Shown here: positions 9,440-22,239 of the stretch, one piece after another
How the letters are laid out: each line of letters starts with the position of its first letter
Position numbering within the stretch: the stretch's first letter is position 1
Assembly: GCA_016784195.1 (NCBI GenBank)
Contig: JADHVE010000006.1
Span: forward strand, 1-30,233
Length of the DNA: 30,233 nt
Source of the DNA: Candidatus Woesearchaeota archaeon
Lineage (GTDB): Archaea > Nanobdellota > Nanobdellia > Woesearchaeales > GW2011-AR4
Direction: 5' to 3'
Notes under the pieces: model-generated
The model's input: only the letters and a program-made list of their open reading frames with translations
Databases searched by the model: none
What the model was told of the DNA's origin: nothing
Translations under genes and position numbers: made by a program

Positions 9440-9910
9440 ATGAAATGTCCTTTTTGCAGCAATCCTGATACAAAAGTTCTTGATAAAAGGGAAACTGAAG
9501 AGCTGGAAGTAACCAGGAGGAGAAGAGAATGCTTAAAATGCAGAAAACGCTTTACGACTTACGAGAGGATTGAAACTGTTGAGCTGTTTGTTGTAAAAAA
9601 AGATGACAGAAGAGAGCAATTTAACTTAGATAAATTAAAAACAGGTATTATTAAAGCATGCGAAAAAAGGCCAATAAGCATGGAACAGATTGAGCAGGCA
9701 CTTAATAGTATAATGGCAGAGCTTAAAGAAAAAAACAAGAAAGAGATACAAAGCAGGGAAATTGGCGAGTTGCTGATGAGAAAATTAAAGAAGCTTGACC
9801 AGGTTGCTTATATAAGGTTTGCTTCTGTTTACCAGGATTTTCAGGATCTGTCTTCTTTTAAAAAAGAGGTAAGCAGATTAGAGAAAAAAAGGAAAATTAA
9901 TAAAAAATAA
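9440..9910 (+). CDS. nrdR: Transcriptional repressor NrdR (zinc ribbon plus ATP-cone)
   Basis: MKCPFCSNPDTKVLDKRETEELEVTRRRRECLKCRKRFTTYERIE followed by an ATP-cone-like region (VVKKDDRREQFNLDKLKTGIIKACEKRPIS). Confidence 0.85.
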   Translation: MKCPFCSNPDTKVLDKRETEELEVTRRRRECLKCRKRFTTYERIETVELFVVKKDDRREQFNLDKLKTGIIKACEKRPISMEQIEQALNSIMAELKEKNKKEIQSREIGELLMRKLKKLDQVAYIRFASVYQDFQDLSSFKKEVSRLEKKRKINKK

Positions 9911-17421: not shown

Positions 17422-17994
17422 ATGGAAACACAAAAGATAGAAAAGAGCAAAGAAGAAACTGCAATAATACTTGACTTTTTGCCAAATGGATATCCATTTG
17501 ATGAAAGGCCGAGCTATGTCAAGACTGCAATAGCTCAAGCTCTTGGAAAAGAAAGATTTGTATTGTTAGAATTAGTTCCAAAAAAAGAAATGCATCTTCA
17601 GCCATATGAAGAAGTGTATATCGGCGAAGGCAAAAGAGACAAAATACACCATATAGTCGGAAAATTAAATTCTAGCAGATTAACAAGAACTGCCAGAACT
17701 GAATTAGAGCATATCATAAAGGAGATTGTAAAGAAAACTGAGGCAAGGTTTGTGGATTTTTTCAATAATGCAAGGCCTTTAAGTACGAGGATGCACCAGC
17801 TTGAGCTTCTTCCTGGCTTAGGCAAAAAGCATATGTGGCAGATAATTGAAGCAAGAGAAGAAGAGAAATTTAAAAGCTTTGAAGACTTAAAGAAAAGAGT
17901 AAAGCTTATGCCTGACCCTGAAAAAGTAATAGTAAAAAGAATATCGCGGGAATTAGACGGCAATGAAAAGCACAGGCTGTTTGTTGATATTTAG
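17422..17994 (+). CDS. DUF655-family protein (archaeal, conserved partner of L21e/RpoF)
   Basis: AIILDFLPNGYPFDERP...AQALGKERFVLLELVPKKEMHLQPYEEVYIGEGKRDKIHHIVGKL matches the DUF655 conserved core. ATG at 17422 follows the upstream stop by 1 nt. Confidence 0.75.
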   Translation: METQKIEKSKEETAIILDFLPNGYPFDERPSYVKTAIAQALGKERFVLLELVPKKEMHLQPYEEVYIGEGKRDKIHHIVGKLNSSRLTRTARTELEHIIKEIVKKTEARFVDFFNNARPLSTRMHQLELLPGLGKKHMWQIIEAREEEKFKSFEDLKKRVKLMPDPEKVIVKRISRELDGNEKHRLFVDI

Positions 17995-18001
17995 TTCTAA
18001 A

Positions 18002-18625
18002 ATGAATCATACTAAGCAGATAAAAATTGGGAATATTTTAACGTCTGAAATTGAAATCAGGGATTTGATCAAAGCTTGGATTGCAATTTCAATAGCTTTC
18101 GGAATTCTTATTGCAGGAACAATCTTTTCAATAAAATTTTATTCTAGCTTTATCATTGCTTCATTGACTGTAGGCGTTGGATTTTTATTTCATGAATTGG
18201 GACATAAGATTGTTGCACAGCATTACGGCTGTTTTGCTGAGTTCAGAGCCTTTAATCAAATGCTGATTTTAGCAATCATAATGTCTTTTTTTGGTTTTAT
18301 ATTTGCAGCTCCTGGCGCTGTGATGATATCCGGACCTGTAGGCAAAAAAAGAAACGGAAAAATATCTTTGGCAGGACCTGCTGTTAATGTTGTTTTGGCA
18401 GTCTTGTTTTTGGCGTTTTTACTTTCAAATCCCGAGGGGATAATCAAAACAATAGCGTTTTACGGCTTTTTGATAAATACCTGGCTGGCTTTATTCAATA
18501 TGATACCTTTTGGAAATTTTGACGGAGCAAAAATTTTAAGATGGAACAAAACTGTTTATGGTGTTTTTGTTTTTTTTGTTTTAGTTTTGATGTTTATGCA
18601 AAGCTTTATGAGTATGTCTTTGTAA
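18002..18625 (+). CDS. Membrane zinc metalloprotease, M50 / site-2-protease family
   Basis: HELGHKIVAQHYG (HExxH) inside a TM helix; about 5 TM segments. Confidence 0.75.
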   Translation: MNHTKQIKIGNILTSEIEIRDLIKAWIAISIAFGILIAGTIFSIKFYSSFIIASLTVGVGFLFHELGHKIVAQHYGCFAEFRAFNQMLILAIIMSFFGFIFAAPGAVMISGPVGKKRNGKISLAGPAVNVVLAVLFLAFLLSNPEGIIKTIAFYGFLINTWLALFNMIPFGNFDGAKILRWNKTVYGVFVFFVLVLMFMQSFMSMSL

Positions 18626-18696
18626 ACTTACAATAAAAACTAAAAAATATAATCAACAGAAAAATTAATAAATATAGATAATAAAAATTATTTAAA

Positions 18697-19035
18697 ATGG
18701 AAAAATGCCCTTATTGCGGAAAGGAACTAACTGAAGATGAAAGGTACTGTTTCCATTGCGAGAATGACCTTTCCAAGTTTGTTGATAAAGAGGAAAAGCC
18801 AAAATGCTTTATAGCGACAGCAGCTTATGGAAGCCCTTTTGTCAAAGAAGTAGAGATTTTAAGAAACTTTAGAGATGAAAAATTAAAAAATAATTTTTTT
18901 GGATTGTGGTTTATCAATCTTTATTATAAACTAAGTCCACCAATAGCAAAAATTATTGAGAAAAATAATTTTCTTAAAAAAATTGTCAGAAAAACTTTAA
19001 CACCGGTTGTAAAATTGATTCTTAAAAATAAATAA
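18697..19035 (+). CDS. Small zinc-ribbon protein carrying a CFIATAAYGSP...LRNFRDEKL motif
   Basis: N-terminal CPYCG...(13 aa)...CFHCEN zinc ribbon, then CFIATAAYGSPFVKEVEILRNFRDEKL, a motif I recognise as recurring in uncharacterised prokaryotic proteins. Confidence 0.55.
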   Translation: MEKCPYCGKELTEDERYCFHCENDLSKFVDKEEKPKCFIATAAYGSPFVKEVEILRNFRDEKLKNNFFGLWFINLYYKLSPPIAKIIEKNNFLKKIVRKTLTPVVKLILKNK

Positions 19036-19227
19036 AAACTTAACTTTTTTAGTAAAATATAATTAAAAATTAAATTTTTTCTCGTCGGTAAAACCATTTT
19101 TTATTTTTTAAAAATATTTTTAGTGTTTTTTTTAAAAAAATCCTCGACGACAAAATGAGAAATAGAAATGTTTAAATACTATTTATTAAATAAATTAAAT
19201 TAAAAAAGGTGATTTTTTACAAGTAAA

Positions 19228-19653
19228 ATGGTAGAATTCGGGAAACATGTCACGATTGACGCATCTGGTTGTAATCAAAAAAGATTAACTAACCATGCTT
19301 TGATTTATGATTTACTGAATCAACTTCCAGGCCGAATCGGTATGACTAAGATGACATTACCTTATGTCGTCAAATGGATGGATAAAGGGGCTAAAGTTCC
19401 GGGTATTTCTGGTTTTGTGATGATTGCTGAAAGCCACATAAGCGTCCATACTTTTCCTGAAAAAGATTATGTTTTTATTGATGTTTTTTCATGTATGAAT
19501 TTTAATGTGAAACAAGCTATCAAGTTATTGGTTGATTTTTTTGGAGCAAAAAAAAACACCACAAAAATCGTTGCACGAGGTATGGATTTCCCAAGAAGCC
19601 ATACAGATTATATCTATTCTCCTCAAGAAATTGAGTTAAATGCTACAAGATAA
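19228..19653 (+). CDS. speH: S-adenosylmethionine decarboxylase proenzyme (pyruvoyl-dependent, small SpeH-type)
   Basis: MIAESHISVHTFPE contains the ES self-cleavage site of SpeH-class AdoMetDC; length 141 aa. An arginine-decarboxylase paralogue of the same fold cannot be excluded. Confidence 0.8.
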   Translation: MVEFGKHVTIDASGCNQKRLTNHALIYDLLNQLPGRIGMTKMTLPYVVKWMDKGAKVPGISGFVMIAESHISVHTFPEKDYVFIDVFSCMNFNVKQAIKLLVDFFGAKKNTTKIVARGMDFPRSHTDYIYSPQEIELNATR

Positions 19654-19673
19654 TTTCTTTCAAGGTTTAAACT

Positions 19674-20681
19674 ATGAAAACAGGGGTTTTGTATAATACC
19701 ATCAAAAGTTCTGAGACTCGAGAAGTCGAAGAAGATTTGATGGAAATGGCTAATAAGATTAAAAAGTCTTTAGAAAACAACGGCCATGAAGTTTCTTTAA
19801 TTAATGCTGATAAGAACCTTTTTAAAAATTTAAACAAAAAAAATATTGAATTTGTGTTTAATGTTTGCGAAAGGTTTAATGGCAATAGCTTATTTGAACC
19901 CCATGTTGCTGCTATGCTTGAGCTTTTCGGTGTTTCTTTTACTGGCTCTGATTATGTAGCCTTGTCTGAATGTAATAATAAAATAAAAACAAAAGAAATT
20001 TTAACAGTTAACCTAATGCCTACTCCAAAATACCATGTTTTTTGTTCTCCTGATGAAAAATTAAATCCCGGATTGAAATTTCCTTTGATTGTCAAGCCAA
20101 AACAGCAGGAGAACAGCATAGGCATTACAAAAGACGCTGTCGTTTATGATGAAAAAAGTTTGAGAGAAAGGATTAAGTATGTTAATGATGAGTTTAAAGA
20201 AGAAGCTTTGGTTGAAGAGTTTATTAAAGGCATTGATGTTGAGGTCGGGATAATCGGTAATGGTGATGATTTATTTATCCTGCCACTTGCAAAAGTCAAT
20301 TATGAAAATCTTTCAGATGCTGATGAAAATAAGATTTTTTGTTATGAATCAAAATGGGACTTAAAATCCAAGAACTACGGGGATTATGTAAAAGCTGATC
20401 TGTCTGAAGAGGTAGAAGAAAAATTAAAAAGATTGGCGGTAAAAATTTACAAAATTTTTAATATTAAAGATTATGGGAGAATTGATTTCAGGCTGACTGA
20501 AAATAATGAGCCTTATGTTATTGAAGTTACGGCTAATCCCGGGCTGAGTAAGGTTTGCTCAACTCTGGAATCAGCAGAATGGATTGGCTTGAGTTATAGA
20601 GAATTGGTCAATAAAATTTTTGAAAGCGCTTTAAACAGGTATGATATCAGCAAAGAAGAAGCAATAAAAATTTACCCATAA
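19674..20681 (+). CDS. ATP-grasp ligase of the D-alanine–D-alanine ligase-like family
   Basis: Ddl-like N-terminal domain (GHEVSLINADKN), central FPLIVKPKQQENSIGIT, ATP-grasp core EEFIKGIDVEVGIIGNG...EVTANPGLS. Confidence 0.75.
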   Translation: MKTGVLYNTIKSSETREVEEDLMEMANKIKKSLENNGHEVSLINADKNLFKNLNKKNIEFVFNVCERFNGNSLFEPHVAAMLELFGVSFTGSDYVALSECNNKIKTKEILTVNLMPTPKYHVFCSPDEKLNPGLKFPLIVKPKQQENSIGITKDAVVYDEKSLRERIKYVNDEFKEEALVEEFIKGIDVEVGIIGNGDDLFILPLAKVNYENLSDADENKIFCYESKWDLKSKNYGDYVKADLSEEVEEKLKRLAVKIYKIFNIKDYGRIDFRLTENNEPYVIEVTANPGLSKVCSTLESAEWIGLSYRELVNKIFESALNRYDISKEEAIKIYP

Positions 20682-20815
20682 ACAAAAATCCAATAAAAAA
20701 AGGCCATTAACAAAAAAATTATCATCAAAGATTAATAAAGAGTTCAAATAATAAAAAGATACTCCAAAATACCTGACAGGGCACAAACAGAAACACAATT
20801 AGTGGCTGGTGCGGC

Positions 20816-20957
20816 TGTGTTAATTTTTATTATTAAAAATTTTAAAAACCGAAAAGATTATCAAAAAACTAAAAACTACCCACATAATTGAGTGCGTGCA
20901 ATAAAACCTAATGAAAAAAAATAATAACTTAAAATTAATGGTAAAAAATAATTAATG
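20816..20957 (+). repeat. Copy C (diverged, about 70-85% locally) of the repeated upstream module, upstream of the DUF2156-like gene
   Basis: tgtgttaatttttattattaaaaatttt... parallels copy A's tgtgttcaattttttatttttataatttt...; cacataattgagtg versus cacaaataattgtg; ttaaaattaatggtaaaaaataattaatga (20929-20958) versus ttaaaattaatgataaaaacaattaatga (10078-10106). Confidence 0.6.
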
Positions 20958-21893
20958 ATTAAAGATTTAGGGGCGTGTGAATTGGAAGAAATAACAGATA
21001 CAAACAAATACAAAGGATATATTCAAACAGCAATAAGAAAATATGGGCATTGCGCAGAGCATAACTATTATCATTACCATCACTATGAAGATGATAAAGA
21101 AAAAAATATTTTCTTTAAGCTAGAAGGCAGCAAAGGGATATTATCCAGCTATGATAAAAAAAATGATTTGCGATATTTGTTTCCTTCAGGGATACTAGCT
21201 CCTGAAGAAGAGCGTTTTGATATACTGGTTAAGTTTTTGGATTATATTCTAAAAAAGAAAAAAGGAGAAAAACTATTTGTTGAAGTCAATGGGGAGTTTA
21301 GGAAAGAAATATTGAGGGGATTAAAAGATTCCAGACAATACAGGGCTTGCTCCAGCCCGTTTATCCTTTACTGGCCTTTGTATAACATGTCTAAGTTCGA
21401 TTCTAAACTAAAAGGCAAGAACTGGAAAAAATTGAGGAACATAAGGAACAGGTTTTATAAGAAGAATAAAGTCAAAGTTGTCGACAGCAAAAAAGTTCCT
21501 AAAGAACAGCTAACAAGGATATTAGATGCATGGCTGAAAAGAAGGAATGCCCATGATCGGGTGGAAAAGCATTATTTTGAAAATCTTATTGAAAACAATC
21601 TAAAAGGGGTTGAAATGGCAAGGACATTAATTGTTAATGGCAATCCATGCTCAATAACCGCTGGATGGAAAATACCCAATAGCAAAGGATACTATTCTCA
21701 TGTCGGGATTGTGGATTATTCTTGTGAAGGTCTTGGAGAAGTGGCTAATATTGAAGACTTAAAACTGTTAAAAAGAAAAAAATATGATTATGTTGATTTT
21801 GGCGGCTCAGATAAAGTTTTGCTTTATTTCAAGAAAAAGTTCAAACCTGAAAAAATCTATAAGACTTATATTTTTTCTATAGTCAAAAGATAA
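20955..21893 (+). CDS. DUF2156-like protein (homologue of the catalytic domain of aminoacyl-phosphatidylglycerol synthase MprF/LysX and VlmA: aminoacyl-tRNA-dependent aminoacyltransferase), with no membrane domain
   Basis: C-terminal ...VDFGGSDKVLLYFKKKFKPEKIYKTYIF resembles the conserved C-terminal block of DUF2156; 312 aa with no TM segment. Assigned from memory, moderate confidence. Confidence 0.5.
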   Translation: MIKDLGACELEEITDTNKYKGYIQTAIRKYGHCAEHNYYHYHHYEDDKEKNIFFKLEGSKGILSSYDKKNDLRYLFPSGILAPEEERFDILVKFLDYILKKKKGEKLFVEVNGEFRKEILRGLKDSRQYRACSSPFILYWPLYNMSKFDSKLKGKNWKKLRNIRNRFYKKNKVKVVDSKKVPKEQLTRILDAWLKRRNAHDRVEKHYFENLIENNLKGVEMARTLIVNGNPCSITAGWKIPNSKGYYSHVGIVDYSCEGLGEVANIEDLKLLKRKKYDYVDFGGSDKVLLYFKKKFKPEKIYKTYIFSIVKR

Positions 21894-22239
21894 TACACTT
21901 TGTTTCTCCTATTTAAATTTTCAATTGAGAGATTAGGCTAAGCAATGTTAAATTTGTCCCTAGGCTACCCTATTTTTATATAATTTATATAAAAAACCTA
22001 AAAAAAACGATATGTTTAAATACTAAATTTGCTTACTCATGTACTAAGAAAGCAAAAAGTTCAGTTGGAATAAAAAAAGGTAGTAAATAATTTTTTATGG
22101 GAATTTCTATTTTATTCCTGTAATATAGTATTCAACATCATTATGAGGAGTTAGTTGAAACCGTGTGTTGGATGTATAACAAATTAGTTTAGTAAATATT
22201 TGTAATAAGATTGGTATTAACCCATTATAGAGCTGGGGG

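Follow-up and report, generated by a model that had tools for sequence, protein, structure and literature searches.

MfnA and MfnD form a pair of a decarboxylase and an ATP-grasp ligase that makes tyramine and then gamma-glutamyl-tyramine, and peptidoglycan branches can be added by either ATP-grasp or Fem enzymes. We describe here a locus of a tiny symbiotic Candidatus Woesearchaeota archaeon (DPANN) that would follow the same logic with other protein families, substrates, and organisms, and we use both systems as analogies only. The locus lies in a 30,233-nucleotide (nt) stretch of DNA, referred to below as the window (contig JADHVE010000006.1 of assembly GCA_016784195.1, positions 1 to 30,233), and consists of three genes encoding a SpeD-family decarboxylase, an ATP-grasp enzyme with the fold of D-alanine-D-alanine ligase (Ddl), and a stand-alone DUF2156 protein (Table 1). 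Where no spermidine synthase accompanies them, SpeD homologs often turn out to decarboxylate arginine or ornithine (Li, Liang, Phillips and Michael, JBC 2023, PMC10407285). The arginine decarboxylases of this family (SpeDA) can hardly be separated by sequence from S-adenosylmethionine decarboxylase (AdoMetDC), and PIN80235, a SpeD homolog from Ca. Woesearchaeota whose gene lies in a cluster with speY and speB, has arginine decarboxylase (ADC) activity with a kcat/Km of 600 M-1 s-1 and no AdoMetDC activity (PMC10407285). The published text on the SpeDA clusters does not mention DUF2156, acetyltransferase, or ATP-grasp genes (PMC10407285). From comparative sequence analysis, we propose with a probability of about 45% that the operon described here couples the production of an arginine-derived amine to amino acid ligation, which would yield an aminoacyl or peptidyl derivative of agmatine or putrescine.

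Table 1. Features of the decarboxylase, ATP-grasp, and DUF2156 locus, with positions numbered from the first letter of the window
Feature	Positions	Strand	Remarks
A/T palindrome (TTTTTTTTAAAAAAA) and, 3' of it, a GC box (CTCGACGAC); constant distance to the TATA box	19126..19151	+	candidate regulator site
Archaeal BRE/TATA-like promoter (AGAAAtgTTTAAATACTA) of the SpeD-led operon	19160..19181	+	~50 nt before the ATG
SpeD-family decarboxylase proenzyme, pyruvoyl dependent	19228..19653	+	141 amino acids (aa); Pfam, TIGR03330, E68/S69, H74, C89
Ddl-fold ATP-grasp carboxylate-amine ligase	19674..20681	+	335 aa; Pfam, NCBIfam, AlphaFold2 (AF2) fold match, residue conservation
Spacer between the ATP-grasp and DUF2156 genes	20682..20954		273 nt, A/T rich; terminator-like hairpin at 20802-20818
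Soluble stand-alone DUF2156 protein, tandem-GNAT fold	20955..21893	+	312 aa; Pfam, AF2 fold match
Second exact copy of the promoter 14-mer	22012..22025	+	next transcription unit; downstream boundary of the trio

The three open reading frames (ORFs) were exactly where a sequence-only reading of the window had placed them, with 20 nt between the SpeD stop codon and the start of the ATP-grasp gene, and the family calls of that reading agreed with Pfam, NCBIfam, and fold searches. The trio proteins are identical to NCBI entries of a Ca. Woesearchaeota metagenome-assembled genome (MAG), for example, MBL7054328.1, and the source contig is also present as ENA ERZ24794648 NODE_5164 (43,456 nt), whose sequence beyond the window we analyzed as locus L100. 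We gathered about 100 related loci in three ways, from contigs encoding ATP-grasp homologs and from loci with a gene for a DUF2156 relative in GTDB species representatives (25 loci) and in metagenomes (65 loci), and we scanned their ORFs with hidden Markov models built from the recurrent families found. Architecture counts rest on 33 dereplicated loci with complete flanks. All named loci are from Woesearchaeota or Nanoarchaeota, except for some binchicken MAGs labeled Methanosarcinales that have the same synteny. The labels of these GTDB MAGs ("uncultured Methanosarcinales archaeon"; L006, L007, L012, L018, L021, L022, L026, and L028) look wrong, as they carry the Woesearchaeota-type locus and its synteny.

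The recurrent families were the SpeD homolog (S), the ATP-grasp enzyme (G), the DUF2156 protein (D), an agmatinase (B; TIGR01230, 262 bits against a cutoff of 174), a ~295-aa Fem-like GNAT protein matching Pfam Acetyltransf_6 that we call F2 (F), a 180-aa CxxCxxCC protein (C), and sometimes a protein of the deoxyhypusine synthase (DHS) family (H). A neighbor-joining tree divided the DUF2156 proteins into two clades, DUFb, which is always encoded directly after SpeD, and DUFa, which is encoded further downstream and contains the window protein. The SpeD gene stood in the same block as a DUF2156 gene in 19 of the 33 loci and the ATP-grasp gene in 13, and the adjacency of the trio genes is therefore not due to chance. 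Agmatinase was present in 14 loci, F2 in 11, and DHS in 4, and 15 loci had at least two DUF2156 genes, with up to four paralogous transferases per locus. The architectures were S-D-B-D (6 loci), G-D (5 loci), S-D-B-D-F (4 loci), and two loci each of S-G-D (the window and L060), S-G-C-D, G-D-D-F-C, and S-D-B-H, with eight other architectures accounting for the last 10 loci. Over the whole set of about 100 loci, the commonest form was SpeD-DUFb-agmatinase-DUFa(-F2). Other forms were SpeD-ATPgrasp-agmatinase-DUFa-F2 in L017 and L064, where the ATP-grasp gene occupies the slot held by DUFb in S-D-B-D-F, SpeD-DUFb-agmatinase-DHS in L024, L025, and L080, and SpeD-ATPgrasp-(Cxx)-DUFa in the window, L001, L006, L060, and L102.

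Three lines of evidence argue that this is an operon and more than just inherited synteny. The genes recur as same-strand clusters and are tightly packed or overlap, with DUFb overlapping agmatinase by ~24 nt and a gap of 0 to 7 nt between DUFa and F2. One promoter is found behind two unrelated upstream contexts, Rpb4-DUF655-M50-(CFI-box) and NYN-x-x-Lit-like. Lastly, L032 (6001-12491) carries a five-gene operon headed by a 44%-identical Ddl-like ATP-grasp gene, followed by genes for a PurD-like ATP-grasp protein (far below the PurD cutoff), a third ATP-grasp protein, a fold-III pyridoxal phosphate (PLP) decarboxylase, and a DUF2156 protein. The L032 decarboxylase is LysA/DokD-like, scores below all curated cutoffs, and has a stop codon that overlaps the DUF2156 start. 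L032 is an independent case in which a decarboxylase that is not homologous to SpeD takes part in the same association. In the 77%-identical relative L102, the S-G-D trio is kept, and the genes that follow it are all different.

The promoter region spans ~70 nt and has the same order in both upstream contexts, an A/T palindrome, a GC box (yCGaCGr), and AGAAAg.TTTAAATACTAcTTTT. The upstream regions of 28 distinct SpeD genes, aligned on the TATA box, gave the consensus aattTtt..aAAAatT..CG.Cg..aAAaa, and TTTAAATACTA was kept in all 28. In the window, a GGTGA Shine-Dalgarno-like motif lies at ~19208-19212. This conserved promoter/operator suggests that the operon has a dedicated regulator. The exact 14-mer ATGTTTAAATACTA occurs only at 19168-19181, before SpeD, and at 22012-22025, after the trio, and no copy with three or fewer mismatches was found in the 273-nt spacer. 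The DUF2156 gene does not, then, stand behind its own copy of this repeated module, as had been claimed. In close relatives, the position of the spacer holds the 180-aa CxxCxxCC gene or the agmatinase gene, and tblastn and blastn searches of the spacer and the rest of the window found no remnant of a degraded agmatinase, F2, or CxxCxxCC gene. As seen from these locus comparisons, the trio represents a shortened version of a conserved Woesearchaeota operon that varies in gene content behind one conserved promoter, and agmatinase and F2 have been lost from the locus in the sublineage of the window, L001, L006, L060, and L102.

The SpeD homolog scored 95.6 bits with Pfam AdoMet_dc (PF02675; cutoff, 25) and 84.3 bits with the AdoMetDC equivalog model TIGR03330 (cutoff, 75.65). 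The self-cleavage site noted in the sequence-only reading is present as E68-S69, and in an alignment, S69, H74, and C89 are spaced like S63, H68, and C83 of Thermotoga maritima AdoMetDC. The SpeD proteins across the collected loci form one tight family, and orthologs about 55 to 82% identical to the window protein are encoded directly beside agmatinase and a DHS/SpeY homolog, as in L024, L025, and L080; for the orthologs in the 14 agmatinase loci and 4 DHS loci among the 33, identity is roughly 55 to 70%. This is the context of the published SpeDA, with which the window protein also shares the fold, the self-processing Ser/His/Cys residues, and the phylum. The window copy differs in having no agmatine-consuming gene (speB or speY) nearby, and it was compared with PIN80235 by context alone. 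No aminopropyltransferase was found in the Pfam-annotated neighborhoods or among the recurrent neighbor families. Because its orthologs adjoin agmatinase and DHS/SpeY as in PMC10407285 and because no aminopropyltransferase is found in the neighborhoods, the window SpeD homolog is probably an L-arginine decarboxylase of the SpeDA type and not an AdoMetDC that produces decarboxylated S-adenosylmethionine (dcSAM). The family has an insertion at the position where PMC10407285 places the proline that discriminates AdoMetDC from SpeDA.

The sequence-only reading had taken the decarboxylase as the dcSAM-producing enzyme and had suggested an aminopropyl-decorated product among others. If the protein were a true AdoMetDC, the ligases would decorate an aminopropylated polyamine or metabolite. 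Such a role would agree with the intact catalytic residues and with the TIGR03330 score, although the latter is not diagnostic, since SpeDA is so close to AdoMetDC in sequence. It would also agree with the route to spermidine through N1-aminopropylagmatine, which agmatinase-family enzymes also serve (PMC13625781). A bacterial-type S-adenosylmethionine (SAM) synthetase gene lies convergent and just 3' of the SpeD-DUF2156-agmatinase-DHS block in one subclade (L022, L024, and L025, e.g., L025:13014-14195). Against these points, the missing aminopropyltransferase makes aminopropyl chemistry unlikely, and the Woesearchaeota homolog that shares the speB/speY setting shows ADC and not AdoMetDC activity (PMC10407285). 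We consider this version as a whole, dcSAM production with ligases acting on an aminopropylated product, very unlikely. The suggested link to polyamine metabolism itself came out stronger than had been claimed, with agmatinase and a DHS/SpeY homolog interleaved in relatives.

The ATP-grasp protein scored 112 bits with Pfam Dala_Dala_lig_C. Its AF2 model (pLDDT, 87.9) had Ddl structures as all of its best 50 PDB matches (TM, ~0.79; identity, 20 to 25%), and it shares the three-domain ATP-grasp fold with Ddl. The phosphoryl-transfer and ATP-Mg residues K227, R269, D271, E284, and N288, as well as W228, were invariant in 30 homologs; K227 corresponds to Ddl K215, R269/D271 to R255/D257, and E284 to E270. 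The score with the best curated Ddl model was 156 bits against a cutoff of 243, and the scores for the 25 listed of 45 matched NCBIfam models, nearly all Ddl/Van, were each below their cutoffs. Tyr216 of the Ddl D-Ala2 site is replaced by the invariant Trp (W228), the Ddl His63/Glu68 region by an invariant F-N-x-C-E-R motif (F62-N63-x-C65-E66-R67), and Ddl Asn272 by Thr in the window protein, and the family carries an insertion at the Ddl S281/L282 position. We considered and rejected its being a true peptidoglycan Ddl, which is by far the nearest family although the listed curated cutoffs and the substrate residues fail, and its being MfnD, RimK, or LysX, because by profile scores, Ddl is so much nearer; other ATP-grasp families scored much lower, with 74 bits for L-amino-acid ligase, 32 bits for GshAB, and weak RimK-type matches. 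Profile scores and locus comparison place the enzyme outside the characterized clades and among conserved neighbors, and the expectation that this Ddl-like ligase would not be a peptidoglycan Ddl has held. Given scores far below the cutoffs, the Tyr216-to-Trp change, and the replaced His63 region, it is not a bona fide D-Ala-D-Ala ligase. It belongs to a Woesearchaeota-centered clade. Public records label the genes of this operon "adenosylmethionine decarboxylase" and "D-alanine-D-alanine ligase," a systematic misannotation whatever the chemistry turns out to be.

More distant ATP-grasp relatives (37 to 39% identical) occur as tandem pairs beside a KamA-family radical-SAM aminomutase, without a DUF2156 gene, in L033 (6001-9320) and L034 (4355-8893). 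The L033 aminomutase is a lysine 2,3-aminomutase by TIGR03820 (529.5 bits against a cutoff of 525.4), and that of L034 had only Pfam Radical_SAM and LAM_C matches. These ATP-grasp pairs may be ligases for beta-lysine peptides.

The DUF2156 call was borne out by the profile search, in which residues 142 to 284 matched Pfam LPG_synthase_C/DUF2156 (PF09924) with 44.9 bits against a gathering score of 27.5. The AF2 model (pLDDT, 90.8) has a tandem-GNAT fold, and its PDB fold matches were, in order, MprF synthase domains, 2HQY (a stand-alone Bacteroides DUF2156 protein), Sba18 and Sbb17, and FemX. The matches to MprF, A-PGS, L-PGS, and 2HQY had E values of 1e-12 to 1e-9 and TM scores of about 0.6 to 0.69. 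Sequence-profile searches of the DUF2156 and F2 families against PDB sequences gave no meaningful matches, and only the fold search tied DUF2156 to MprF/Fem. F2 aligns weakly with the DUF2156 profile (hhalign E value, 6e-4). The window protein has a predicted basic helix at residues 155 to 170 (KNWKKLRNIRNRFYKK), located between its two GNAT domains, in which K158, K159, R161, N162, and N165 are invariant, and F2 contains a counterpart of this helix, with KKHRKN. A basic helix at this place is needed for aminoacyl-tRNA use in the aminoacyl-phosphatidylglycerol synthases (aaPGS) and ErgS (PMC8913301). Some members of the DUF2156 family also match ATE_C and Acetyltransf_6, a further point in favor of tRNA use. 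The modeled structure predicts an aminoacyl-tRNA-dependent aminoacyl transferase.

Among the fold matches, Sba18 and Sbb17 (PDB 9wqy/9wqx) are aminoacyl-tRNA-dependent peptide synthases whose structures have streptothrisamine bound, and by analogy, they offer a precedent for a small-molecule amine acceptor of this fold. They and FemX resemble the window protein in being stand-alone proteins of ~290 to 330 aa with the same fold and in transferring an aminoacyl group from tRNA to an amine, as is predicted for the window protein. They differ in belonging to bacterial antibiotic or peptidoglycan pathways, whereas the window protein belongs to a core polyamine operon of DPANN archaea. Several Fem paralogs act in series, to which we liken the paralogs of the operon. 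In two separate 50%-identity clusters, represented by L103:7001-8362 (P0238) and P0465, the DUF2156 protein continues at its C terminus into a RimI-like N-acetyltransferase domain, a fusion that fits a product with a free amino group, and the L103 fusion gene lies directly 3' of an ATP-grasp gene.

The C-terminal domain of MprF and aaPGS shares with the window protein the tandem-GNAT fold, the basic interdomain helix, and the Pfam match above the gathering score. These lipid-modifying domains being the closest structural matches (A-PGS, L-PGS, and MprF), the main alternative is lipid aminoacylation, in which the DUF2156 proteins would act like MprF synthase domains on membrane lipids, perhaps scavenged from a host, and the polyamine genes would be mere coregulated partners tuning envelope charge. 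Free-standing fungal DUF2156 proteins modify sterols (PMC8913301), and Woesearchaeota carry bacterial-type lipid genes (PMC8204110). In ~10 loci of the second upstream context (L007-L018, e.g., L008:6810-7586), the gene directly upstream of SpeD encodes a membrane protein of the Lit family (lipoprotein intramolecular transacylase-like, PF07314), which would also suit a lipid substrate. The window protein differs from MprF in its low identity (14 to 17%), its polyamine rather than lipid gene context, and its size and solubility: it has no transmembrane segment and no N-terminal flippase domain, is hydrophilic (GRAVY, -0.72; pI 9.6), and scored 14 bits against a cutoff of 600 with the NCBIfam MprF model NF033480. 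The family is closed and DPANN centered; a set of 1.84 billion proteins contains 183 representative clusters of it, almost all stand-alone and ~300 aa long, and none of the best 150 of these 183 matches was of MprF length. The number of paralogous transferases in a single locus also argues against a lipid acceptor, as does the interleaving, and not just adjacency, of the transferase genes with SpeD and agmatinase. One transferase slot is, moreover, interchangeable with an ATP-grasp ligase, and no lipid-modifying ATP-grasp ligase is known to us. We therefore regard lipid aminoacylation as unlikely, and the dcSAM alternative described above and the two discussed below as less likely still.

The DHS homologs in some clusters raise the alternative that the transferases aminoacylate a protein amine, like L/F-transferase or ATE1, with the deoxyhypusine or an agmatine-derived side chain of aIF5A as a candidate target. 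Some DUF2156 family members match Acetyltransf_6 and also ATE_C, the arginyl-tRNA-protein transferase domain, the fused RimI-like domain is related to protein N-acetyltransferases, and the aminomutase beside the distant ATP-grasp relatives is of the KamA/EpmB family. The ATE_C matches are weak, though, and DHS is found in a minority of the loci, in clusters whose counterparts are read in the literature as SpeY (homospermidine) clusters. With no aIF5A gene in the annotated neighborhoods or among the recurrent neighbor families, we give a protein target little credence.

We return to the proposed conversion of arginine to an aminoacylated amine. In this pathway, the SpeD homolog would self-cleave at E68/S69 and decarboxylate L-arginine to agmatine. 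The ATP-grasp enzyme would activate the carboxylate of an amino acid as an acyl phosphate and join it to the primary amine of agmatine or putrescine; in the sister operons, DUFb would perform this first ligation with aminoacyl-tRNA instead. Agmatinase, where present, would remove the guanidino group and expose a second amine. The window DUF2156 protein (DUFa) would add a further aminoacyl group from aminoacyl-tRNA, and F2, where present, would then add another, giving an aminoacyl- or peptidyl-agmatine or -putrescine. This order of steps fits the gene order, the equivalence of the ATP-grasp and DUFb slots, and the Sba18/Sbb17 precedent. Since agmatinase and F2 are absent from the locus in the window lineage, the product there would be a mono- or diaminoacylated agmatine, unless their genes lie elsewhere in the genome.

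Several observations weigh against this pathway. For every family member, we infer the acceptor, the amino acid, and the dependence on tRNA, and the closest structural relatives of the DUF2156 protein modify lipids. The orthology of the window SpeD homolog to PIN80235 is likewise drawn from taxon and gene context only, and the convergent SAM synthetase gene in three related loci weakly favors an AdoMet-related role. The window locus has no agmatinase, F2, or DHS gene, and none was found on the source contig beyond the window. Nine of the 13 loci with an ATP-grasp gene have no decarboxylase nearby. In the window, the 273-nt spacer and its terminator-like hairpin split the ATP-grasp gene from the DUF2156 gene, making cotranscription uncertain here. 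Finally, the flanks consist of partly syntenic housekeeping genes (Rpb4, DUF655, and M50 upstream and aIF2-gamma and S6e downstream), and the adjacency could in part be inherited synteny.

These flanks would be expected if the genes were unrelated neighbors kept together by descent. A related possibility is that the Ddl-like and Fem-like enzymes build the peptide of an envelope polymer, as Ddl and Fem enzymes are a hallmark of peptidoglycan peptide synthesis in bacteria. Neither explanation sits well with one promoter conserved across two distinct upstream contexts, with the gene overlaps and slot swaps, or with the independent PLP decarboxylase case. The annotated loci contain no Mur, MraY, or MurG genes, no peptidoglycan pathway surrounds the window ATP-grasp gene, and the Woesearchaeota literature that we found reports degradation of peptidoglycan, not its synthesis. 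We consider these two explanations, taken together, very unlikely, on a par with a dcSAM product or a protein target.

Several other features of the window and its relatives are recorded here as separate observations. At 17963-19035, a gene for an M50-like intramembrane metalloprotease precedes one whose zinc-ribbon product has a CFI-box-CTERM domain (NF041770, 95 bits). Both genes are found together again in L001, L019, and probably L102, where the second protein has 112 aa and no family match, and the two proteins may be a protease and its substrate in a sorting system. The copy of the 14-mer at 22012 is separated by 215 nt from the next ORF, which encodes 447 aa and has no family match; an Rfam search of 22012-22239 found nothing, and this segment could serve as a long leader or encode a small RNA. 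No known RNA families or tRNA genes were found in the window. Three loci, L004 (8158-9879), L007 (12330-13991), and L102 (10613-12495), carry an aminoacyl-tRNA synthetase gene downstream of the cluster, at a distance of a few genes. These encode a class I LysRS, a GluRS, and a class I Leu/Ile/Val-type enzyme, in different contexts, and may be a coincidence in a housekeeping region. At 9440-9910, the window encodes an NrdR-type zinc ribbon and ATP-cone protein in a DPANN archaeon; NrdR is typically a bacterial repressor of ribonucleotide reductase.

Each component of the operon comes from a known enzyme family, and what is new is their combination and the predicted acceptor. In full-text literature searches, we found no paper joining DUF2156 with ATP-grasp ligases, polyamines, or agmatinase and none on Woesearchaeota Ddl-like genes; the sequence-only reading, too, knew of no described archaeal pathway of this composition. 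The interleaved transferase genes go unmentioned in two papers from the Michael laboratory on speDA-speB-speY clusters, and our analysis adds these unreported genes to the published Woesearchaeota cluster. A wider and more doubtful possibility is that Woesearchaeota make a new class of aminoacyl- and peptidyl-polyamines, in which agmatine would serve as a monoprotected putrescine and SpeD, ligase 1, agmatinase, ligase 2, and the Fem-like GNAT would act in that order. So far, aminoacyl-tRNA transferases are known to act on precursors of peptidoglycan, on phospholipids and sterols, and on a few intermediates of antibiotics. If the proposed pathway is true, it would extend these acceptors to the polyamines of primary metabolism and would be the first diversion of aminoacyl-tRNA into polyamine modification. 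It would also mean that the same operon slot can be filled by either an ATP-grasp or a tRNA-dependent ligase. For the archaeal stand-alone DUF2156 proteins, it would provide a first function, and one that is testable across a DPANN-restricted family of 183 representative clusters.

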